64,000 nucleotides of DNA from an uncultured Solirubrobacteraceae bacterium (lineage in GTDB: Bacteria; Actinomycetota; Thermoleophilia; Solirubrobacterales; Solirubrobacteraceae): assembly GCA_964588985.1 (NCBI GenBank), contig CAZPQW010000018.1:8442-72441 (forward strand). The letters are read 5' to 3'. Under the pieces are notes generated by a model. That model was not told the origin of the DNA. It saw only the letters and a program-made list of their open reading frames with translations, and searched no databases. A program made the translations under genes and the position numbers. Below are positions 13,407 to 25,169 of the stretch, in pieces; position 1 is the stretch's first letter; every line of letters starts with the position of its first letter.

Positions 13407-15023
13407 CTACTCCCACTCGATCGTGCCGGGCGGCTTCGACGTGATGTCGAGAACCACCCGGTTGACCTCGCGCAGCTCGTTGATCATGCGCGAGGCGATC
13501 GTCTCGAGCAGGTCGTACGGGAGTCTCGCCCAGTCGGCTGTCATGGCGTCGTCGCTGGTGACCGCGCGCACGACGACCACGTAGCCGTACGTGCGCTCGT
13601 CGCCCTGCACGCCGACGGTGCGCACGTCGGGGAGCACGCAGAAGGACTGCCACAGCTCGCGGTAGAGCCCCGCCTTGCGGATCTCCTCCTGGAGGATGTG
13701 GTCGGCCTCGCGCAGCACGTCGAGGCGCTCCTTGGTCGCTTCGCCGCCGACGACGCGGATCGCGAGGCCCGGCCCGGGGAAGGGCTGGCGCCAGACGAGC
13801 CGTTCGGGCAGACCCAGCTCGGCCCCGACGGCGCGCACCTCGTCCTTGAACAGGGCGCGAAGCGGCTCGACGAGCTCGAACTGGAGGTCGTCGGGCAGGC
13901 CGCCGACGTTGTGGTGGGACTTGATCGTCGCCGCGCCGGTGCCGCCGCCGGACTCGATCACGTCGGAGTAGAGCGTGCCCTGGACGAGGAACGCGGCGCT
14001 GTCCCCGCCGTCGGCGCCGACGAGCTTCTCGGCCTCCTCCTCGAACACGCGGATGAACTCCGCGCCGATCGCTTTGCGCTTCGCCTCGGGCTCGGTGACG
14101 CCCTTGAGCTTGTCGAGGAAGCGCGTCTCGGCGTCGACCGCGACGAGCGGCACCTTGAACGTGTCGCGGAAGGTCTTGACGACCTGTTCTCCCTCGTCCT
14201 TGCGCATCAGGCCGTGGTCGACGAACACGCACGTGAGCTGCTCTCCGACGGCGCGGTGCACGAGCAGCGCGGCCACCGAGGAGTCGACGCCGCCGGAGAG
14301 CCCGCAGATGACGTTGCCGTCCCCCACCTGTTCGCGGATGCGGCGGATCTGTTCCTCGACGATCGACGCCGCCGACCACGTCGGCTCGCAGCCGCACACC
14401 TCGGTGAGGAAGCGCGTGAGGATCTCCTGCCCGTAGGGGGTGTGGACGACCTCGGGGTGGAACTGAATGCCGTAGATCGAGCGCTCGGTGTCCTCCACCG
14501 CGGCGACGGGCGAGCTGGTGGAGGAGGCGAGCGCGGTGAAGCCGGGGGGCGCCTCGTAGACGGTGTCGCGGTGGGACATCCAGCAGGTCTGCTCGCGCGG
14601 CATGCCCTTGAGCAGCGTGCCCGTGTCGGACACGTGCAGGTCGGAGCGCCCGAACTCCCCCACCTCCGCCTGCTCGACGCGCCCGCCGAGCGAGTGGACG
14701 AGCAGCTGCATGCCGTAGCAGATGCCCATCACCGGGACGCCCAGCTCGAGCAGGCCGAGATCGAGCGGCGGCGCGCCGTCGGCGTACACCGATGCGGGGC
14801 CGCCGGAGAGGATGATCCCGCGCGGTTTGCGCCGAGCGACCTCCTCCAGCGGGACGTGGTGCGGCAGCAGCTCGCTGAACACGCCGCAGTCGCGGACCCT
14901 GCGGGCGATCAGCTGCGAGTACTGACCGCCGTAGTCGAGGACGATTATCTCTTCGGTTGCCGCGGGCGCGATGCTCGGTGGCTCGGCGACCGCCTCAGAC
15001 GCCGTGACAGCCGAACTAGTCAT
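13407..15023 (-). CDS. guaA: GMP synthase (glutamine-hydrolysing)
   Basis: [37 protein letters not shown]. Confidence 0.98.
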
Positions 15024-16209
15024 TGACGAGCTGTGCGACCTTCCCGTTCGTGGCGCCCATGCCGACGCCCTGGTCGCGCTGCAGCGCCTTGCCCTCGGTC
15101 TGCAGGGCGGGCGCGACGACTACCTCGGCGCGGTTGAACTCGGCGAGGTCCTTGTGTCCGCAGGTGGCCATCGAGGTGCGCAGGCCGCCGAACAGGTTGA
15201 ACGTGCCGTCGTTCTCGCGCGCGGGACCGGTGAGGATCTCCTCGAGCGTGCCGTTCTGCGTGGTCGCGACGCGTGCGCCGCGCGGGAGCGTGGGATGGAA
15301 CGTGGCCATGCCCCAGTGGAAGCCCCGTCCGGGGGCCTCGTAGGCGCGCGCGAGCGGGGAGCCGATCATCACTGCGTCGGCGCCGAGCGCGATCGCCTTG
15401 GAGACGTCGCCGCCGTTGCGCATGCCGCCGTCGGCGATCACCTGGCTGTACTCGCCGGTCTCGAGCATGTGCGTCGAGCGGGCGTGGGCCACGTCGGCGA
15501 TCGCTGTCGCCTGCGGCACTCCGATCCCGAGCACTCCGCGCGTGGTGCACGCCGCGCCGGGGCCGACCCCGACGAGCACGCCGGCGGCGCCGGTGCGCAT
15601 CAGGTGCAGACCCGTGTGGTAGGACGCGCAGCCGCCGACGACGACGGGCACGTCGAGCGACGGGATGAACTCCTTCAGGTTGAGCGGCTCGGAGACGGTC
15701 GAGACGTGTTCGCCGGAGACGACGGTGCCCTGGATGACGAGCACGTCGAGGCCCGCCTCCAGCGCGATCTCGTGATAGGCGAGCACGCGCTGCGGCGTGA
15801 GCGACGCGGCGACGACGACCTTCTGTTCCTTGATCTCGCGGATGCGCTGGGCGATCAGCTCGGGCTTGACGGGCTCGGCGTAGATCTCCTGCATCTCGCG
15901 CGTGGCGAGGTCCTTGGGCAGGTGGGAGATGCGCTCGAGCTGCTCCTCGGCGTCCTCGTAGCGGGTGAAGATCCCCTCGAGGTTGAGCACCGCGAGGCCG
16001 CCCAGCCGCCCGACGATGCCGGCGGTCTCGGGGGATACGACGCCGTCCATCGCGGAGGCGAGCATCGGCAGGTCGAACTGGTAGGGCCCGAGCTTCCAGG
16101 AGATGTCGATGTCGTCGGGGTCGCGCGTGCGCCGGGAAGGAACTATCGCGATGTCGTCGAACCCGTATGCACGGCGAGCTTTCTTGCCGCGGCCGATTTC
16201 TATCTCCAT
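15016..16209 (-). CDS. GuaB3-family IMP dehydrogenase-related protein
   Basis: [39 protein letters not shown]; no CBS domains. Confidence 0.92.
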
Positions 16210-16328
16210 TGCCGGATCCTCTCAGTTGCCGCGGACGAGAAAACCCCGCGCGAAGCGGGGCCAAAAGAGGGTTGGCGGGGCGCCTGAAGAGCCTTGTAGG
16301 TGACCGCTGCCAAGTGAAGACGAGCATA
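16210..16328 (-). promoter_or_regulatory. guaB3 promoter (extended -10 TGc-TATGCT) and structured 5' leader with an intrinsic terminator; candidate attenuator/riboswitch
   Basis: -10 at 16328-16323; hairpin CCCCGC-UUCGC-GCGGGG-UUUUCU at 16260-16238, upstream of SD GAGGA and ATG 16209. Confidence 0.55.
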
Positions 16329-16374
16329 GCAATCGTCACACCGGCCCTATTGCCCTTGGATATGCTCGATCGCT

Positions 16375-18663
16375 ATGGGCGACGCCGCGAGCACGCGCTA
16401 TCAACCGCATGAGATCGAGGCCCGCCGCCAGGCCGCGTGGCGCGAGCGCGACGCGTTCAGGACGCCGCCGCTGAGCGAGGAGCAGCCGCACCTCTACATC
16501 AAGCCCTCGGCGCCGTTCACGTCGGGCAACGTGCACATCGGGCACGTGCGCAGCTACTCGATCGGAGACGCGTACGCGCGTTTTCGCCGCGCGCGCGGCG
16601 AGGCGGTGCTGTTCGCGTTCGGCTTCGACGCGTTCGGCCTGCCGGCGGAGCTCGGCGCGATCGCCGGCGGGGAGTCCCCCAGCGAGTGGGTCAACCGCTG
16701 CGCGGAGCACATGACGGGACAGCTGGACAGGCTGGGCTTCTCGTTCGACTGGGAGCGCTCGTTCCTGAGCTCCGACGCGAACATGTACCGCTGGTCGCAG
16801 TGGCTGTTCCTGGTGCTGCTGGAGGCGGGCCTGATCTACCACGGCAGCGGCAACGTCGACTGGTGCGACAACTGCGAAACGACTTTGGCGTCGATCCAGG
16901 TCGAGGCGGGCGGCACGTGCTGGCGCTGTCATGGACCGGTCAGGTTGATCGAGCTGCCGCAGTGGTATCTGCGCATTAGCGCCTATCTGCAGGAGAACGA
17001 TGCTCGTTTGCAAGAGCGCGCGGACAGCGGGATCTGGGACGAGGTGTCGCTGGCGTCCCAGCAGATCGTGTTGGGACGGGTCGACGGCGTGGAGGTGGAG
17101 ATGCGCGCCACCGACTCCACGGGCGACGTGCTGACGGTGTTCACGCCCTACGGCGACGCGGTGTCGGAGGCGCGCTTCGTGCTGCTCTCCGCGCGCCATC
17201 CCGACGTCGAGAGCTGGGCATCGGACCCGGCGGTGCTCGAGCAGCTGGAGCAGCTGCGCGCGGGCGGCTGGGAGCGCAGCGCGCGCGAGGCGGAGACGAT
17301 CCCGGTGATCGACACCGGGCGTACGGTCGCGGGTCCGGACGGCGTGGCGCTGCCGGTGCTGGTCTCGCCTGTAGTGGACTCGCGCTTCGGGCCGACGGCG
17401 GTGCTGGGCGTGCCCTCGCGCGACCGTACCGACGAGGTGCTCGCGGGGCGGCTGGGGATCGAGGTGCCGGAGGACGAGGCTGACGAGGCTGCGCGGGGCG
17501 CCGGAGCGAGCGATGGCGTCGGCCCCTCCCCCACGGCCCAAGCCGCGGTGCGCTACCGCGCGTTCGACTTTGTGGTCTCGCGCCAGCGCTCGTGGGGCAC
17601 GCCGATCCCGATCGTGTACTGCGACTCGTGCGGCACGGTGCCGGTGCCGCGCGATCAGCTGCCGGTGCTGCTGCCGCTGGACATCCACCCGACGGGGACT
17701 GGCAACCCGCTGGCGGAGATGGAGGAGTTCGTGAACACGACGTGCCCGACGTGCGGCGGGCCGGCGCGACGTGAGACGGACACGCTGGACTGCCACTTCG
17801 ACGCGCTGTGGCTGTGGGTTCCCGCGTGCGTTCCGCCCGAGAATCGCGAGGACACGTTGGAGGAGATATTCGCGCTGGCGGACCTGCGCCACTGGCTGCC
17901 GTCGGAGCGCCTGGTGGCGGGCTCGGACAGCGGCAACTTCGTGTTCGACCAGCGGACGGTGACGAAGGCGCTGCGCGACATCGGCCCGCTGTCGTTCCTC
18001 GAGGATGGCGAGCCGTTCGCGGGTTGCCTGTTCCACGAGATGGTGATCAGCGAGGGGCGCAAGATGAGCAAGCACCTCGGCAACGTGGTCGACCCGGACG
18101 AGCTGATCGCGCGCTACGGCGCGGACACGGTGCGTCTGGCCGTTCTCTACGCCGCGCGCCCCCAGCGGTCGTTGAACTGGAGCGACTCGGCGGTGCTGCG
18201 CTGCCACAGGTTCCTGACGCAGGTGTGGGAGTACTCGCACGCGCGGATCGCGCGCGCCGCCGCCGTGGACCCCGAGGTCGCCGCGGCGGATACGGCCGTG
18301 GGCGAGGACGGCGAGCCGGTGAGAGACAACACGGAGCACTTCAGGGCGCAGCTGTCGAAGTGGTGCGCGAACGGCGTGGAGAAGATCACCGAGGACATGG
18401 AGGCGCTGGAGATGCACAGCGCGGTGCGCAACGTGATGCGCCTGTTCGACCGCATCAAGGACTTCGAGAAGCGAGTGCTCGCAAGACAGGACGAGCTGAG
18501 CCGCGCGAACCTCGACGCGCTGCTCGACGCGCTCGGCGTGCTCGCCCAAACCCTCGGCCCGTTCGCCCCGCACATGGCCGAGGAGCTGTGGATGACACTG
18601 GGAAACACGGAGCACAACACACAGACGCCGTGGCCAGGCGTATCGTCTCAGGTACTCGCATGA
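16375..18663 (+). CDS. leucyl-tRNA synthetase paralog (class Ia), amino-acid pocket remodelled, C-terminal domain absent
   Basis: HIGH, FDAFGLPAE, SRQRSWGTPIP, KMSKHLGN, GADTVRL, PFAPHMAEELW. Confidence 0.9.
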   Translation: MGDAASTRYQPHEIEARRQAAWRERDAFRTPPLSEEQPHLYIKPSAPFTSGNVHIGHVRSYSIGDAYARFRRARGEAVLFAFGFDAFGLPAELGAIAGGESPSEWVNRCAEHMTGQLDRLGFSFDWERSFLSSDANMYRWSQWLFLVLLEAGLIYHGSGNVDWCDNCETTLASIQVEAGGTCWRCHGPVRLIELPQWYLRISAYLQENDARLQERADSGIWDEVSLASQQIVLGRVDGVEVEMRATDSTGDVLTVFTPYGDAVSEARFVLLSARHPDVESWASDPAVLEQLEQLRAGGWERSAREAETIPVIDTGRTVAGPDGVALPVLVSPVVDSRFGPTAVLGVPSRDRTDEVLAGRLGIEVPEDEADEAARGAGASDGVGPSPTAQAAVRYRAFDFVVSRQRSWGTPIPIVYCDSCGTVPVPRDQLPVLLPLDIHPTGTGNPLAEMEEFVNTTCPTCGGPARRETDTLDCHFDALWLWVPACVPPENREDTLEEIFALADLRHWLPSERLVAGSDSGNFVFDQRTVTKALRDIGPLSFLEDGEPFAGCLFHEMVISEGRKMSKHLGNVVDPDELIARYGADTVRLAVLYAARPQRSLNWSDSAVLRCHRFLTQVWEYSHARIARAAAVDPEVAAADTAVGEDGEPVRDNTEHFRAQLSKWCANGVEKITEDMEALEMHSAVRNVMRLFDRIKDFEKRVLARQDELSRANLDALLDALGVLAQTLGPFAPHMAEELWMTLGNTEHNTQTPWPGVSSQVLA

Positions 18664-19988
18664 GTCTTCAGACCGCAAAGAGCCCCTCGAAGCAGCGGAC
18701 GCGCTCGTGCGCGACCGGCCTGGCGTGCCACCGCTGCGACAACCACTACGCCCTCGAGGACACGGTGTTCTCGTGCCCGGACTGCGGCAAGGGCCTCGAC
18801 GTGGTCTACGACTACGAGCTGGCGGCGAGCCACTTCAGGGACTTCCCAAGCTCGGAACGCCCGCAGAACATCTGGCACTTCGAGGAGCTGCTGCCGATCG
18901 TGGACGCGGCGGCACAGGCGCGCGTGGGTCAGTTCTCCGGCTACACGCCGCTGATCCGCGCGGATCGGCTGGGCGCGGAGCTTGGGCTGAACAACCTGTA
19001 CCTGAAGGACGACTCGAGCAACCGCCCGAGCCTCTCCTACAAGGACCGCGTGGTGTCGATGTCGATTGCGCGCCTGTTGGAGCGCGGCAAGACGGAGATC
19101 GGCTGCGTGTCGACCGGCAACGTGGGCACCGCGGTGGCGTCGCTCGCGGCGAAGGCGGGCGTGGACGCGTACGTGTTCTACCCCAACGCGCTGGAGGACA
19201 TGAAGGCGCGGGCGTGCATGGCGCTCGGCGCGAAGGTGTGCCAGGTGGAGGGCAACTACGACGAAGCGAACCGCCGCTGCCGCGAAATCGCGGAAGCGAC
19301 GGGCATGGACTTCGCGAACATCACGCTGCGCCCGTTCTACGCGGAGGGCGCGAAGACAGCGGCGTTCGAGATCGTGGAGCAGCTCGGCTGGAACTCGCCA
19401 GACCACATCATCACGGCGGCCGCCGGCGGCACGCTTTCGTCGCGCCTACACAAGGGCCTCGACGAGCTGCAGCTGCTGGGCCTGTCGGAGACGGACGGCA
19501 CGCGCATCCACATCGCCCAGCCGAGCGGCTGCAACCCGATCGCGACGGCGATCCTGGCCGAGGAGGCGGAGGTCCACCCGGTGACGCCGGAGACGGCGGC
19601 GCACTCGCTGGCGATCGGCGCCCCCGGCGACGGCTACTTGGTGATCGACGCGGTGCGCAAACGCGGCGGCACGGGCGGGTTCGCGAGCGACCCGGAGATC
19701 TTCGCGGGCATCGACCTGCTGGCGGCGACCGAGGGTCTGTTGACGGAGCCCGCGGGCGGCACGACGATCGCGGTGCTTGAGAAGCTCGCGGCGGTCGGTC
19801 GCTTCGCCCCCGACGACACGGTGGTGGCGATCATCACGGGCAACGGGCTGAAGACGCTGTACGACCACCCGCAGAAGCCGTGGCCGGCGAAGGTGGACTG
19901 CGAGCTGGACGCGATGATGGCGGCGCTCGAGGAGCTCAAGAGCGGCGGCTCGCTGATCGACAGCGCTCGCGAGCAACTGCACCCGTAG
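18660..19988 (+). CDS. threonine-synthase-like fold-type II PLP enzyme
   Basis: ATGA overlap with the LeuRS-paralog stop; CHRC..CPDC zinc ribbon, SYKDR, STGN, YAEGAKT, TEPAGG, ITGNGLK. Confidence 0.9.
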   Translation: MSLQTAKSPSKQRTRSCATGLACHRCDNHYALEDTVFSCPDCGKGLDVVYDYELAASHFRDFPSSERPQNIWHFEELLPIVDAAAQARVGQFSGYTPLIRADRLGAELGLNNLYLKDDSSNRPSLSYKDRVVSMSIARLLERGKTEIGCVSTGNVGTAVASLAAKAGVDAYVFYPNALEDMKARACMALGAKVCQVEGNYDEANRRCREIAEATGMDFANITLRPFYAEGAKTAAFEIVEQLGWNSPDHIITAAAGGTLSSRLHKGLDELQLLGLSETDGTRIHIAQPSGCNPIATAILAEEAEVHPVTPETAAHSLAIGAPGDGYLVIDAVRKRGGTGGFASDPEIFAGIDLLAATEGLLTEPAGGTTIAVLEKLAAVGRFAPDDTVVAIITGNGLKTLYDHPQKPWPAKVDCELDAMMAALEELKSGGSLIDSAREQLHP

Positions 19989-20008
19989 GGAACGGCCGGA
20001 GGCTCGAG

Positions 20009-21223
20009 CTGCAGGGGGCACGGCAATCGTGGCGGGCGGTCGGGGCGTATGCGCTCGCGGCGGCCGCGAGCCAGATGCTGTGGCTGACGTTCGCTCCGAT
20101 CACGACCGCGAGCGCGCACCACTTCCACGTCTCCGAAGCGACCGTGGGGTGGCTGTCGGAGGTGTTCCCGCTGGTGTACGTGCTGCTGGCGATCCCCGCG
20201 GGGATGGCGCTCGACCGCTGGTTCCGTCCGGCGTTGATCGCGGGCGCGACGCTGACGGCGCTCGGCGGGCTGGTGCGCCTCGGTGGGGATGGGTTCGGCG
20301 TGGCGTTGGCGGGCCAGGTGCTCGTGGCGGTGGGCCAGCCATTCGTGCTGAACGCGATCACGAAGCTCGCGGGCGAGTACCTGCCGGCGGAGAAACGCCC
20401 GGAGGGGATCTCCTACGGCTCGGCGGGCATCTTCGGCGGGATGCTCCTCGGGCTCGGGCTGGGTCCCGTGTTGGGCAGCTCCGGCAACCTGCACACGCTG
20501 CTGTTGGTCAACGCCGTCTTCGCGAGCGTGGCGCTGGTGGCGCTCGCCGCGGCTCTGCGCGCGCCTGGGATCGGCGGCGAGCACGAGGACACGCTGGAGC
20601 CGAGCGGCCTGCGTGCGGTGTGGAACGACCGCCTGATCCGCAACGTCGCGGGCGTGTCGTTCCTCGGCTTCGGCGTGTTCGTGGCGGTGACGACGTGGCT
20701 TCAGGCGCTGCTCAGCCACTCGGGCGTGTCCTCCGACACCGCCGGCGGGCTGCTCGTGGGCATGGTCGTGGTGGGGATCGTAGGCTCGGCGGTGGTGCCG
20801 GCGGCGGTCGCGAGACGCGGACAGACCTTTGGGCTGATGCGCGTCTCGGCGCTCGGCGCGTCGTTCGCGTGCCTGATGCTCGCGACCCTGGACTGGCTCC
20901 CCGGCTTCGCGGTGGCGGTGGCGCTGATCGGCTTCCTGCTGATCACGAGCCTGCCGGTGATGCTCGAGCTGACCGAGCGGCGGGCGGGCGTGAACGGCGG
21001 CAGCGCGACGGCGCTGATGTGGATGGCCGGCCAGGGCGGCGGCATCGTGATCGCGGTGATCGTGCAGGTGGTGGTCCACCACCCCACCGTCGCGTTCGTG
21101 CTGATGGCGGTGGCCGCGGCGGGCGCGCTGCCTTTGATCGACGCGGCGTCGCGGGTTGCGGAGGCTGAGGATCTGGGCTTGGCGCAGGCCGATGAGGCGA
21201 TCACGCTACGCGTCGGCGCCTAG
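20009..21223 (+). CDS. MFS transporter
   Basis: About 12 hydrophobic helices; motif-A-like GMALDRWFR. Start uncertain: in-frame CTG 20009 sits 6 nt after GGAGG. Confidence 0.85.
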   Translation: MQGARQSWRAVGAYALAAAASQMLWLTFAPITTASAHHFHVSEATVGWLSEVFPLVYVLLAIPAGMALDRWFRPALIAGATLTALGGLVRLGGDGFGVALAGQVLVAVGQPFVLNAITKLAGEYLPAEKRPEGISYGSAGIFGGMLLGLGLGPVLGSSGNLHTLLLVNAVFASVALVALAAALRAPGIGGEHEDTLEPSGLRAVWNDRLIRNVAGVSFLGFGVFVAVTTWLQALLSHSGVSSDTAGGLLVGMVVVGIVGSAVVPAAVARRGQTFGLMRVSALGASFACLMLATLDWLPGFAVAVALIGFLLITSLPVMLELTERRAGVNGGSATALMWMAGQGGGIVIAVIVQVVVHHPTVAFVLMAVAAAGALPLIDAASRVAEAEDLGLAQADEAITLRVGA

Positions 21224-21606
21224 CGACGCGCAACAGAAGAGAGCGCGAGTGCCGTCGGCATTTGCGGTTTTTACACCGCGGCCGGTTTGGCGGTCGTTCC
21301 TCAACGGAACACTCACGCTCTCTGGGGCGATCATGATCGACCTGGCTGCCGAGGTCATCGCGGCAAACTACCCGCACGCGATGAGGGTTCGGCCGCAGCA
21401 GTGGCGTCAACGCAGCGGCCAAGGCCTGACGCCGGATCGACCGCTGTGCATCACCCTTCCAGCCCTGATGCTGGCACCAGGCGCGCGGTGAGGTCGCAGC
21501 GGCGGCTGGAGCGCTGGGTGCACGGGGCAGCGACGCCGATCGCCAGGCGAGTGGTGAACGCCTTCTCTACATCGGGCCGGAAACCCAAGAACACCGTGGC
21601 GCATCG

Positions 21607-22110
21607 TCAGTCCTCGCAGATGTCGGCGGTCTGGGCAGCGGTGATGCGGACGATCTCGCGCGGATCGAGCAGCACCGAGTGGCGGTGGTCGCCGGCTGGG
21701 CAGAGGATCTGCTCGTGCCCCGTGAGCGCGCTGTCGATCACCTCGGCCGCTGGGACCATCGGGCCGAAGGGCGGGACGGCGCCGACTTCCAGCAGCGGGA
21801 AGTCCCGGGCGATCTCGTCCTCGCTCGCGAGCCGCAGCTGTCGCGTGGCGCCGAGCAGATCGCGGAGCTTGTGCAGATCGAGGCGGTCGGAGGCGGGTAT
21901 CGCGGCGATCACGTAGATGTCGCCGTCGTGCAGCACGATCGTCTTCGCGACCCGGCCGGGCGGAAGATGCGCGGCGCGCGCCTCAGCAGCTGCGCTCGTC
22001 GTCCGTGCGTGCTCGACGAGCTCATACGACGTACCCGTACCCTGCAGAAACCCGGTGATCGCGTCGACGCGAGTGGTCTCGACCGCGCCCGACGCTCCGT
22101 CATTCAGCAT
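21607..22110 (-). CDS. YbaK/ProX-family aminoacyl-tRNA deacylase
   Basis: VAKTIVL (conserved Lys), LASEDE, GAVPPFG, AGDH. Confidence 0.88.
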   Translation of the reverse strand: MLNDGASGAVETTRVDAITGFLQGTGTSYELVEHARTTSAAAEARAAHLPPGRVAKTIVLHDGDIYVIAAIPASDRLDLHKLRDLLGATRQLRLASEDEIARDFPLLEVGAVPPFGPMVPAAEVIDSALTGHEQILCPAGDHRHSVLLDPREIVRITAAQTADICED

Positions 22111-22298
22111 CGTTCTCCCCTCCCTCGAAATTGGTCCTGTGCATCGTGCTTGAGACGCTACGCCTGTGGGGATGCGGCGTTATACGGGGAAACCACGGGA
22201 GTGGGTCGCGGGACTATACGCCTGGCAAATAGATCAACATCGGCGTTCACTACGGTCATTGCCGTGGGTTTCTACCCCACCTGTCAGGCGTGTCGGGA

Positions 22299-22351
22299 AT
22301 AGAAAAACCCCGCCGTAGCGGGGCTTTTCCTTAGCGGGTCGATAAGCCGGA
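22299..22351 (-). repeat. direct repeat copy 1 (attR-like): rnpB 3' end plus terminator
   Basis: 52/53 nt identical to 23838-23890; the only difference is 22316 t vs 23855 g, in the hairpin loop. Confidence 0.95.
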
Positions 22352-22456
22352 GGTTTGGGACTCGGTTAGGACGCGCCGCCGACCTGCTTCAGGAGGACGG
22401 CCGGTATGCCGATTGGCTGGATAGCCTCCACAGAAGGCGTTACGCTCTGATTGACG

Positions 22457-22648
22457 ATGACTTTGCGGATAGAACATGTTGACGTTCAGGTGCTTCTCGA
22501 TGAAGAGGAGAGGGATCGCCGCGCCGATGAGGTGGCGCTGCGATCTGGACGTAAGACGCACGAGCAGCTCAAGCGCGAAAACGAGGTCTTTGCGCTTCCG
22601 CCGAGTCGCATTCGGATCAACCTCGACTCAGCGCACTCTCTTTCCTGA
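22457..22648 (+). CDS. small protein, possible antitoxin/partner of the downstream nucleotidyltransferase
   Basis: 63-aa ORF ending 23 nt before the NTase-like gene. Confidence 0.55.
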   Translation: MTLRIEHVDVQVLLDEEERDRRADEVALRSGRKTHEQLKRENEVFALPPSRIRINLDSAHSLS

Positions 22649-22671
22649 GCGACGATTCCAGAGCCGCACAC

Positions 22672-23477
22672 GTGGCTGAGGAGCATCAGAGCGAGGCCGA
22701 GCTGCCTCCGCTGAAGATCGACGAAACCGAGCGCATCATCGCTCGCCTTGAGCAAGTCGTCCGCGATCGGCGAGTCGTCCTTGTCGGTGGACAGGCAGTC
22801 GCCATTTGGGCATCGAAGCTCGCAGATCGGATAGCGGACACGCTCGTCGAGGCAGTGGCGAGTCGAGATATCGATCTTCTCGGCAACTCCTCGGACCTCC
22901 GACAGTCAGCCGAACTACTCGGCGGACGTATCCGCGTAGCTACTTGGGAGGACCGCACACCCTTACCGGCGTCGCCATCTTCCTCGACAACGAAGGTCAC
23001 GAGCGCCGCCTCGATGTCTTGGCAAGCATCTACGGAATGAACTCCGACGACATCAGACAGACAGCCATCGAGGCAGAGTTGCTCGTGGAAGATGATCGGC
23101 TCGTTCATGTCTGGGTGATGCACCCAGAGCGCTGCATGGAGAGCCGCGTCCACAACAGCGCTCTCTCGAACAAGCAAACGGACCTCGCCTGGCGCCAGCT
23201 CCGAGCCTCCATCCTCTGCGCGCGTGCGTTCAGCCAACTACTACTCGATGAGCGCGGCGAGGCCGCGGTCCGCGACGTTCTGAAGCTCAACGAGCCCATC
23301 TTCCGTTTCGCGCAGCAAGACCGCTGCTCGGCGCTCGCGTCCGACAGAGGGATCGATGCTTTCGACGCCGTGCTCGATGACGAGCGGCTGCCCGATCAGT
23401 TCAGGACAGTCCGGCTGCCCCAGATGCAGGACAGGATTCTGACCGTGCGCCAACAACAACGCGACCGCACGTTGTGA
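22672..23477 (+). pseudogene. Pol-beta-superfamily nucleotidyltransferase-like gene with a 1-nt frameshift near 22963
   Basis: Frame A: VVLVGGQAVAIW..SRDIDLLG..EDRTP. Frame B continues TGVAIF..RRLDVL..VMHPERCMESRVHN. Confidence 0.7.
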
Positions 23478-23837
23478 ACACCACCCCGATGCCAGGGCAT
23501 CCTGGCGGGCATCTGTTCGTCGACGGCGGGAGGGGCCCGCTTGGCACGGCGCCGCCATCAACTCGGCGCAACGTAGGGACGCCACGACGATCGCAGAGTG
23601 CGCACCAGCAGATCCCCGGATGCCTCCTACTCAGCGCACCCAAGGCTCCATCGGAGCGATAGCGCCGATACCGACCGGAAGCAGGCTGCGGGCGACCGGT
23701 GCTCCTGCTAGAACTTGCGTCGCGGTGTGGAGCGCTGCCGGCCAGAGGTCGGGTGCCCGCGCCGAGCGATCCCATAGAAATCGCCGTCGTCATCCGGTTC
23801 CAGCGCTTAGCGTGTTTAGTCTCCAGCTACTGAACAC

Positions 23838-23890
23838 ATAGAAAAACCCCGCCGGAGCGGGGCTTTTCCTTAGCGGGTCGATAAGCCGGA
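23838..23890 (-). repeat. direct repeat copy 2 (attL-like), within and after the intact rnpB
   Basis: Matches copy 1. Confidence 0.95.
23840..23868 (-). terminator. rnpB intrinsic terminator
   Basis: AAAAGCCCCGC-UCCG-GCGGGG-UUUUUCU on the minus strand. Confidence 0.85.
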
Positions 23891-24197
23891 TCCTGTCGTT
23901 GAGCAGCCATCCATCTGAGCGGCCTACCTGGACCTCGGCGGGCAGCCTGCAAACGGTCCCGTTTGGCCTTGCATCGAGTGGGGTTTGCCCAGCCGCCGCG
24001 TCACCGCGACGCTGGTGCGCTCTTACCGCACCATTTCACCCTTGCCGGCCCGCCGTTCACGTGGGACGGCGGACGTAGGCGGTTTGTTTCTGTGGCACTT
24101 TCCCGCGGGTTTCCCCGGGTCGATACCTCGACCACCCTGCCCTGTGATGTCCGGACTTTCCTCGAAGGCTTGCGCCTCCGCGGCTGCCTGACCTGCA
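23872..24197 (-). ncRNA. rnpB: RNase P RNA (bacterial type A)
   Basis: GAGGAAAGTCCGG, AGTGCCACAGAAA, GGTGAAATGGTGCGGTAAGAGCGCACC, GGCAAACCCC..GCAAG, ACAGGATCCGGCTTA; P1 GCAGGUC/GACCCGC. Confidence 0.97.
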
Positions 24198-24277
24198 CGG
24201 TCAACGTAGCGCGCGAGAGGCGCTCTGTGAAGGGGTGGGTTCGCACGCCCGACCGCGGGCAGCGAGGCGGCTGGAGC

Positions 24278-24955: not shown

Positions 24956-25046
24956 CACTGTAGCGACGGTCGTGGACGGATGCAACATCTGGCACCCGCA
25001 GCCCACCCGCTGCCAGCCTCATCCCGAGGCTATACTCGCCCACTCT

Positions 25047-25132
<86 letters not shown>

Positions 25133-25169
25133 TTCGCTCCGTGTACCACCTGCTTGGTACACTGCGTAG

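Follow-up and report, generated by a model that had tools for sequence, protein, structure and literature searches.

A stretch of 64,000 nucleotides from an uncultured Solirubrobacteraceae bacterium (GenBank assembly GCA_964588985.1, contig CAZPQW010000018.1; the whole stretch is referred to below as the window) contains two adjacent genes that encode relatives of leucyl-tRNA synthetase (LeuRS) and threonine synthase (ThrC). The window lies on one contig (C18) of a 48-contig genome. The first gene (P0001 in the list of open reading frames (ORFs); positions 16375-18663, plus strand) codes for a 762-aa protein with class I aminoacyl-tRNA synthetase (aaRS), LeuRS-editing and anticodon-binding Pfam domains, and the second (P0002; 18660-19988, plus strand) codes for a 442-aa enzyme of the pyridoxal 5'-phosphate (PLP)-dependent PALP family, the best matches of which are threonine synthases. 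The stop codon of the former overlaps the start codon of the latter in an ATGA at 18660-18663. A third plus-strand ORF (P0003; 19880-21223) codes for a transporter of the major facilitator superfamily (MFS), and a guaB3 gene diverges upstream.

A preliminary description of this DNA had read the three genes as a candidate biosynthetic trio, in which the PLP enzyme would supply an unusual amino acid for the LeuRS paralog to adenylate and then ligate or load on a tRNA, with export of the product by the MFS protein. Their common orientation and the ATGA overlap were confirmed, as were the paralogy and the linkage of the first two genes, and a rebuilt leucine pocket is in line with that description; the inclusion of the MFS gene and the setting in a biosynthetic cluster did not stand. 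We report here that the conserved unit is a pair of two genes, only 3.6 kb in size, and suggest tentatively that it may make and activate an amino acid other than leucine.

Both genes are paralogs of housekeeping genes

The genome contains a separate canonical leuS, which is divided over two contigs: model positions 1-263 are found at the end of C17, and positions 246-842 (599.9 bits, above the cut-off) at the start of C10. The LeuRS paralog of the window scores 451 bits with TIGR00396, below the equivalog cut-off of 548.4, while the canonical copy of a relative scores 966 bits. Similarly, two other thrC copies, on contigs C12 and C9, score 286.6 and 287.4 bits with TIGR00260, compared with 208.2 bits for the window copy, which itself exceeds the equivalog cut-off of 167.1. 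The C9 copy shares 46% identity and the N-terminal zinc ribbon with the window copy; the C12 copy lies behind a long upstream frame, presumably in the hom-thrC manner, according to our own reading of the frames. Thus, the LeuRS-like and ThrC-like genes are both true paralogs, as the preliminary description had assumed.

The possibility that the LeuRS paralog stands in for a missing aaRS was considered and dropped: among the families inspected, the genome has ThrRS, two LysRS genes, and IleRS-, ValRS-, MetRS- and CysRS-like matches. The two LysRS genes (C11:33666-35105, minus strand, 538.2 bits; C8:4195-5649, minus strand, 474.6 bits) both exceed the lysS equivalog cut-off of 427.6.

The pair is conserved across genera and genomic contexts

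Conservation was examined in 80 loci of metagenome-assembled genomes (MAGs; genome_contigs) from the window's genus. In 79 of them, the LeuRS paralog is followed directly by the ThrC paralog; in the single exception (L061), the LeuRS-like gene is a second copy, the same genome having the standard pair as well. GuaB3 is divergent upstream in 77 of the 80. Compared with the window proteins, GuaB3 is 92-98% identical, the ThrC paralog 78-95% and the LeuRS paralog 67-88%. By coordinates, the pair is adjacent in 34 of 36 sampled genomes of the genus, and in the other two it is broken by contig ends. In a draw of 24 genomes of relatives outside the genus, no ThrC paralog of more than 46% identity was found. 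The pair recurs in another family (f4; genera g41, g159 and g171), where it was present, and GuaB3 absent, in all 14 fetched loci, with tblastn identities of 62-68% for the ThrC paralog and 56-61% for the LeuRS paralog. In nine of these loci, all of genus g159, the two genes are separated by an XRE-type helix-turn-helix gene encoded on the other strand. A 279-aa ORF between the pair genes in one genome of this family (L139) was considered as GNAT-like, and this was not retained, there being no Pfam match.

In an order-wide sample, the LeuRS paralog was detected at E <= 1e-125 in 72 of 401 genomes, including all 21 sampled members of genus g1, both members of g129, eight of 122 members of family f3 and 40 of 122 members of family f4. 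It was found in seven of 401 genomes of a class-level sample and in four of 401 of a phylum-level sample; two of the latter four are from outside the order, show 39-40% identity in ORFs of 837-857 aa, and are probably canonical LeuRSs.

No MFS gene was found at E <= 1e-10 in any of the 80 related loci. A trio with an exporter is therefore not the unit; what is conserved is the LeuRS-like/ThrC-like pair, and its linkage crosses genera and genomic contexts. DNA nearly identical to the window is present in rhizosphere and soil metagenome runs. In one soil metatranscriptome run (X24), contigs 90-95% alike cover parts of both genes (e.g. 17586-17951 and 19506-19663); this coverage is patchy and may reflect DNA carry-over.

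The LeuRS paralog keeps its catalytic motifs and replaces its leucine pocket

Residues of the LeuRS paralog were mapped by alignment to Thermus thermophilus LeuRS (2V0C), the numbering of which is used for substitutions, and invariance was scored in 120 close homologs (75-100% identical). The protein has a Rossmann core, a ZN1 module, a domain like connective peptide 1 (CP1) and a helix-bundle domain. An AlphaFold2 model (pLDDT 76.4, pTM 0.77) matches bacterial LeuRS structures with TM scores of up to 0.70, and that of Neisseria gonorrhoeae with 0.69. HIGH (H54-H57) and the KMSKS position (KMSKH, 563-567) are retained, as is the Asp that contacts the alpha-amino group (D80 in T. thermophilus, D85 here); H54, H57, D85, K563, M564, S565, K566 and H567 are invariant in all 120 homologs. 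Both four-Cys zinc clusters are likewise kept, with C164, C167, C182, C185, C416, C419, C457 and C460 invariant in all 38 aligned sequences. On the other hand, two domains are gone. The leucine-specific domain (T. thermophilus segment 578-636) is reduced to about five residues, and the C-terminal tRNA-binding domain is absent, the protein stopping near residue 805 of 878; eight residues remain past position 755, versus about 70 or more in canonical rows.

The side-chain pocket for leucine, which we take to be formed in T. thermophilus LeuRS by M40, F41, Y43, F501, S504, Y507, H541 and H545, is replaced at all eight positions (M40S, F41A, Y43F, F501H, S504A, Y507L, H541S and H545F; S45, A46, F48, H474, A477, L480, S519 and F522 in the paralog's own numbering), with two further changes (E540D and Y548D). 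Each new pocket residue is invariant in 118-120 of the 120 close homologs, and the new residues differ by subfamily in relatives that are 46-58% identical. Among 72 aligned proteins with a C-terminal domain, by comparison, F501 is kept in 65, E540 in 67 and Y548 in 70. Because the leucine pocket has been rebuilt, a plain LeuRS or a resistance copy of the AgnB2 type is unlikely.

The editing site appears remodelled. The motif TTRPDT has become TPYGDA (T248P, R249Y and T252A), and T247, D251 and the two further Asp residues (D344 and D347 in T. thermophilus, D350 and D353 here) are retained. Position 252 is Ala in 110 of the 120 close homologs. Invariant positions make up 41 of 65 in the pocket segment of the catalytic core, 32 of 133 in CP1, 23 of 107 in the helix bundle and none of 23 in an acidic linker.

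The ThrC paralog is a diverged zinc-ribbon enzyme

The ThrC paralog retains the N-terminal four-Cys zinc ribbon, the PLP lysine (K128), the STGN motif and the PLP-phosphate loop; K128 and S151-N154 are invariant in 34 of 34 sequences. In its zinc ribbon, PLP lysine, STGN motif and LRP[YF]YAEG loop it resembles zinc-ribbon threonine synthases of the PRK08197 type, as judged through the C9 housekeeping copy, which shares that loop. It differs from the housekeeping C9 type at 47 positions that are fixed one way in 91 paralogs and another in 21 housekeeping copies. Among them are a one-residue Arg insertion, an F-to-Y change adjoining the PLP lysine, changes in the loop after STGN and in the glycine-rich PLP-phosphate loop, and K315H.

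A family of short LeuRS-like proteins

A scan of 1.84 billion representatives revealed many 50%-identity clusters of LeuRS-like proteins of 700-760 aa. An alignment was built from 117 representatives (at least 640 aa), six translated relatives and the query. Rows with the C-terminal domain show M[FYL]Y, TTRT, FSY, EHHY and KMSKS, and short rows without it mostly show TP[HY]x, F501H, E540D, Y548D/N and KMSKH; positions 40, 41, 504, 507, 541 and 545 vary by subfamily among the short rows. In a FastTree phylogeny that took in 52 short rows and 28 of the 72 canonical ones, 44 short rows form one clade (Shimodaira-Hasegawa (SH)-like support of 95), with a core of 39 (100) that includes the window protein. 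The canonical rows form their own clade (98), and eight other short rows branch apart. Members of the short family occur in Solirubrobacterales and in one Acidobacteriota MAG, and look-alike clusters in the ESM Atlas are mostly from Actinomycetota, with one from Pseudomonadota. A metagenome scan for further family contexts with the Acidobacteriota member (P0133) gave 80 loci of 33-37% identity, of which 65 carry TTRP and look canonical, and yielded nothing for the family.

Catalytic motifs are not retained throughout. Of the 39 rows in the core clade, HIGH and KMSK are retained by 20, with HIGH or KMSKS lost from the other 19. In either group the CP1 site is preserved (T257, P258, H/Y259, D350 and D353), together with the family-specific D335 and R337; the 19 degenerate clusters retain them in 17, 15, 15, 18, 17, 15 and 17 cases, respectively. 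Motif-less clusters include P0129, P0134, P0140, P0142, P0147, P0148, P0152 and P0153, and one motif-less gene (L111:5626-8007, plus strand) comes after lepB and rnhB in a housekeeping-looking row.

The genomic partners of the family also vary. In genus g3, a LeuA/homocitrate-synthase-like enzyme of about 390 aa is encoded directly upstream on the same strand, with lysA divergent, in three of three loci. It has only an HMGL-like domain and scores below all NCBIfam cut-offs, and the LeuA_dimer regulatory domain was found in none of the three proteins. Second LeuRS-like copies in g1 and in one g10 genome have a divergent isochorismatase-family gene (three loci). In one member (P0127, 909 aa), an N-terminal GNAT domain (residues ~60-135) is fused to a catalytically intact short LeuRS-like protein.

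Comparison with known systems

Canonical bacterial LeuRS (TIGR00396; 1H3N/2V0C, 4AQ7 and 7NUA) has the same fold and domain order as the LeuRS paralog, with CP1 at the bacterial position, and shares with it about 35-41% identity, HIGH, KMSK, the alpha-amino Asp and both zinc clusters. The paralog departs from it by its score below the cut-off, the loss of two domains, the change of all eight pocket positions, TPYGDA and KMSKH. AgnB2-type self-resistance aaRSs do not provide a match, as the pocket of the paralog is replaced, its C-terminal domain is absent and its neighbours are core genes. The preliminary description had raised this option; no inhibitor gene cluster lies near the locus, which likewise speaks against it.

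HisZ, which controls short-form HisG, resembles the present case in that an aaRS paralog is encoded beside an amino-acid-pathway enzyme, and the g3 partner is without its usual regulatory domain. HisZ has lost aminoacylation catalysis, whereas the subfamily of the LeuRS paralog keeps every catalytic motif, motif loss being seen in the 19 family clusters mentioned above. In SepRS/SepCysS and PylS/PylBCD, the genes for an unusual aaRS and for the production or completion of its amino acid are found together, and SepCysS is PLP-dependent. Unlike these, the LeuRS-like/ThrC-like module has no dedicated tRNA in or beside it. Moreover, ThrC is a fold-type II PLP enzyme, unlike the known tRNA-dependent PLP enzymes. 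RhiB, to which the preliminary description had pointed as a ThrC homolog that makes non-proteinogenic amino acids, is instead a drug-insensitive ThrC copy for self-resistance. APPA is described, in the part of the source available to us, as an inhibitor of threonine synthases.

Second LeuRS genes are known from archaea. LeuRS-I of Sulfolobaceae and LeuRS2 of haloarchaea are described, in the accessible passages of two sources, as having CP1 disrupted, the C-terminus divergent or both, with aminoacylation weak or absent (PMC9437257, PMC4005665). They are stated, in those of the first, still to make leucyl-adenylate and to bind tRNA-Leu (PMC9437257). The corresponding passages of this 2022 review of aaRS duplications give LeuRS-I and LeuRS2 as the only LeuRS duplicates and list no function for a LeuRS-derived paralog (PMC9437257). 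The LeuRS paralog is likewise encoded by a second LeuRS gene and differs from both in its replaced leucine pocket, its bacterial type and its tie to a ThrC paralog. In our own search of the literature (articles, with supplementary files outside its scope), no published description of the short LeuRS-like family or of the LeuRS-like/ThrC-like pair was found.

Other class I aaRS paralogs have been repurposed, as exemplified by the MetRS-like hydrazine synthetases. MshC (CysRS-like) and SbzA (IleRS-like) are further cases, characterized in the available passages of the review as adenylating an amino acid for transfer to an acceptor other than the cognate tRNA of translation (PMC9437257). All of these enzymes have, like the LeuRS paralog, a class I core with HIGH and KMSKS. 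The LeuRS paralog differs in its LeuRS parent, in the retention of CP1 and the helix bundle, and in having no cluster context.

Possible function of the pair

The reading that we favour, and that we regard as possible rather than probable, is that of a two-gene module in which a diverged, translationally coupled zinc-ribbon ThrC-type PLP enzyme and a LeuRS-derived enzyme that has ceased to select leucine would make and ATP-activate a non-leucine amino acid. It is favoured because the catalytic motifs and the non-leucine pocket are both invariant, because the pocket residues are specific to subfamilies, and because the linkage outlasts changes of genomic context. From this we infer catalysis by both enzymes, a substrate that links them and an acceptor. 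The ThrC paralog would apply ThrC-type chemistry to an O-phospho-amino acid and thereby make or transform the non-leucine amino acid. The LeuRS paralog would bind this amino acid through the alpha-amino Asp and the rebuilt pocket, which appears larger and more polar, form the aminoacyl-adenylate with HIGH and KMSKH, and hand the acyl group to an acceptor. As to the acceptor, we lean slightly to a tRNA-type 3'-ribose over a small-molecule nucleophile, because the helix bundle and the CP1 pocket with both amino-anchoring Asp residues are kept and no other acceptor gene is conserved. The loss of the C-terminal and leucine-specific domains, and the precedents of MshC, SbzA and the MetRS-like enzymes, incline toward a small molecule.

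Several observations weigh against such a module. The domains that LeuRS uses for tRNA-Leu, i.e. the C-terminal and leucine-specific domains, are missing. Conserved neighbours of the pair include no dedicated tRNA, carrier protein or transferase, and inside the unit itself there is no tRNA, the only one in the window being the long-arm tRNA-Leu(GAG) at 25046-25133. As 19 of the 39 core clusters have lost HIGH or KMSKS while keeping the CP1 residues, the common function of the family may not be adenylation. The XRE-type gene between the pair members in g159 means that tight coupling is not universal. Finally, ThrC-type chemistry is assumed for the partner, and as the ThrC paralog scores above the thrC equivalog cut-off, its product could simply be threonine.

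That the LeuRS paralog might act as an amino-acid-sensing, non-translational subunit that binds and controls a neighbouring enzyme, in the manner of HisZ, is unlikely but deserves consideration. The partners, ThrC-like here and LeuA-like in g3, are amino-acid-pathway enzymes, that of g3 being without LeuA_dimer in all three proteins; the ATGA overlap suggests synthesis of both proteins in equal dose; and the motif-less clusters are still full-length ORFs. A pure sensor, however, would have no need of HIGH, KMSKH and the alpha-amino Asp, which are invariant in all 120 homologs, and to our knowledge no bacterial ThrC is under feedback regulation. The precedent itself, a HisRS paralog, is treated in the available passages of the review (PMC9437257). 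The retention of the CP1 site raises a different option, which we consider quite unlikely, that of a hydrolase or quality-control factor whose remodelled editing pocket serves to deacylate or to bind one particular aminoacyl ester, such as a tRNA that has been mischarged with a by-product of the threonine pathway, the synthetic site being secondary. CP1-site residues are equally well kept with and without HIGH/KMSKS and form the best-kept site across the whole family, and T252 has become Ala in most close homologs. In Escherichia coli LeuRS, T252A reportedly opens the editing pocket to leucine, and entries of that mutant are among the structure matches to the model of the LeuRS paralog. Yet the synthetic-site pocket is invariant and specific within the subfamily, which would be unexpected for an idle site, CP1 is less conserved than the core by the counts given above, and we know of no free-standing LeuRS-type editing factor.

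The three-gene cassette of the preliminary description, with the MFS protein exporting a product of the other two, now appears improbable. The three genes are co-oriented and a terminator-like hairpin follows the MFS gene, and two other runs have soil contigs, about 91-93% alike, that connect the ThrC-like gene with the MFS gene; but the MFS gene is missing from all related loci, the genes downstream of the pair vary, the surroundings belong to the core genome, and the start of the MFS gene is uncertain. Most improbable of all would be a pair of spare or drug-resistant housekeeping copies, i.e. an auxiliary LeuRS and threonine synthase that serve under stress or inhibitors, comparable to AgnB2 or to a ThrC that is insensitive to a drug. 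In favour of it, each protein is a full-length member of its superfamily, the ThrC paralog is above the thrC cut-off, and archaeal LeuRS duplicates with poor aminoacylation, LeuRS-I and LeuRS2, are described in the accessible passages cited above (PMC9437257, PMC4005665). Against this, none of the eight leucine-pocket residues is kept, the LeuRS paralog has no C-terminal domain, and there is no inhibitor gene cluster near the locus. In the LeuRSs tested in one of these sources, as far as its available part shows, deletion of the C-terminal domain, which was of the archaeal type, abolished aminoacylation (PMC4005665). We place the LeuRS paralog among repurposed aaRS paralogs, and a plain or drug-resistant LeuRS is very unlikely.

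Within the favoured reading of an amino-acid-making and -activating module, a new tRNA-dependent system, in which the LeuRS paralog would attach a non-leucine amino acid to a tRNA as an ester and the ThrC paralog would supply this amino acid, or complete it while tRNA-bound, is a rather unlikely prospect. If true, it would parallel SepRS/SepCysS or the pyrrolysine cassette, and would represent a new tRNA-dependent amino-acid route, or a system resembling a 21st amino acid or deliberate mistranslation, in several soil genera of Solirubrobacterales. More generally, repurposed aaRS paralogs have repeatedly given new biochemistry, as in mycothiol, the modification of elongation factor P (EF-P), hydrazine formation and deliberate mistranslation. 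Here, a LeuRS-derived family in abundant uncultured soil and rhizosphere Actinomycetota has members with intact catalytic motifs, a pocket rebuilt in each subfamily and a stable link to paralogs of amino-acid-pathway enzymes. Under the tRNA-dependent reading, the short LeuRS-like clade would, more broadly, be a family of enzymes derived from aaRSs in which a "specificity code" has diversified, with a separate amino-acid-forming partner to match each member. If activity of the pair were borne out, it would add either a new ligase chemistry for amino acids, a new pathway that depends on tRNA, or a regulatory role of the aaRS scaffold that is likewise new.

The MFS gene and other features of the locus

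The MFS gene scores 107.4 bits with Pfam MFS_1 (gathering score 33.4). It had been placed about 20 nt past the ThrC-like gene, which its frame does not bear out: between the ThrC-like stop codon (TAG, 19986-19988) and ATG 20075 there is no in-frame ATG, GTG or TTG, and a 20-nt spacing is obtained only with CTG at 20009. The candidate starts are therefore GTG 19880, which gives a 109-nt overlap with the ThrC-like gene, and ATG 20075, with which part of the first helix matched by Pfam would be lost. The soil contigs that bridge the two genes are about 91% and 93% alike, so the MFS gene is common to very close relatives only; elsewhere the genes downstream of the pair are different, for example TetR/MarR and lipase genes in L027 and an AlkZ-like gene in L038. 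The MFS gene is a recent, lineage-specific local addition outside the conserved module, and might move a substrate or product in the window lineage only. Directly 3' of its stop codon, a terminator-like hairpin is followed by a T run (21244-21266, plus strand); the region contains two terminator-like sites versus a mean of 1.8 in shuffled sequences, and this one is weak when taken alone.

The locus is surrounded by core genes, with glmS, glmM, rpsI, guaA and guaB3 upstream and the RNase P RNA gene, lexA and the normal long-arm tRNA-Leu(GAG) downstream, and has no biosynthetic cluster setting. The divergent neighbour (15016-16209, minus strand) was assigned to the GuaB3 family, which is related to inosine-5'-monophosphate dehydrogenase, by TIGR01304 (533.9 bits versus a cut-off of 342.1) and serves here as positional context only.

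Two boxes in the region between guaB3 and the LeuRS-like gene, GAGCATAGCAA (16322-16332) and CCTTGGATATGCTCGA (16354-16369, plus strand), are at least 90% conserved in 38 aligned orthologous intergenic regions. The second holds the TATGCT that had been noted 8 nt ahead of ATG 16375 (16361-16366), which is likely the -10 element of a leaderless or near-leaderless transcript. The first, read on the minus strand, holds TATGCTC and is an inverted copy of the box at 16361-16367, about 30 nt away; it is likely the -10 element for the divergent guaB3. A simple sigma-70 consensus scan found no promoter ahead of the LeuRS-like gene. The two inverted TATGCTC boxes are most simply, and likely, two divergent -10 elements, with the plus-strand one giving rise to a leaderless message. 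A site for a shared regulator is also possible, because every position of the boxes is conserved, beyond the T-A---T of a -10 element.

The guaB3 leader (about 110 nt) contains a G+C-rich hairpin, CCCCGC/GCGGGG, with a T run (16244-16262, minus strand) between guaB3 and the putative -10 element. It matched no Rfam family and may be an attenuator or another leader element. Past the MFS gene, the stretch at 21287-23800 has a G+C content of 0.62 versus about 0.70 and ends at the RNase P RNA gene (23866-24199, minus strand); four ORFs of 183-223 aa scanned from it gave no Pfam match.

Outside the window, a 73-nt tRNA gene of class I shape, with anticodon UAA and A73 (65.2 bits with Rfam), was found at L157:5172-5244, minus strand (contig C5:99000-109500); a normal long-arm tRNA-Leu(UAA) is also present in the genome, which has 47 tRNAs. 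An ArgRS-like ORF that keeps LHVGH (TIGR00456 83.8 bits versus a cut-off of 261.65) follows the 73-nt gene directly on the same strand, and the other neighbours are a divergent cytochrome P450 gene, a flavin N-monooxygenase-like gene, an LmbU-family regulator and an acyl-CoA-dehydrogenase-like gene. This tRNA occurs in 21 of 61 sampled relatives, all of the window's genus; its anticodon is invariant, and the anticodon stem shows compensatory changes. Of 20 fetched loci, 14 have the ArgRS-like gene and 19 the P450 gene. The arrangement resembles a small cluster, for biosynthesis or recoding, in which an aaRS paralog is accompanied by a tRNA of its own. As a candidate for the tRNA of the LeuRS paralog, it was not assigned; by BLAST it is present in 21 of 37 genomes of the genus, versus the pair in all. 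A 97-nt tRNA-like gene at C27:31243-31339, minus strand, has a four-base anticodon according to ARAGORN, and the tRNA list of the genome contains no tRNA-Glu(UUC); judged by eye, this gene could be a tRNA with an insertion in the D region.

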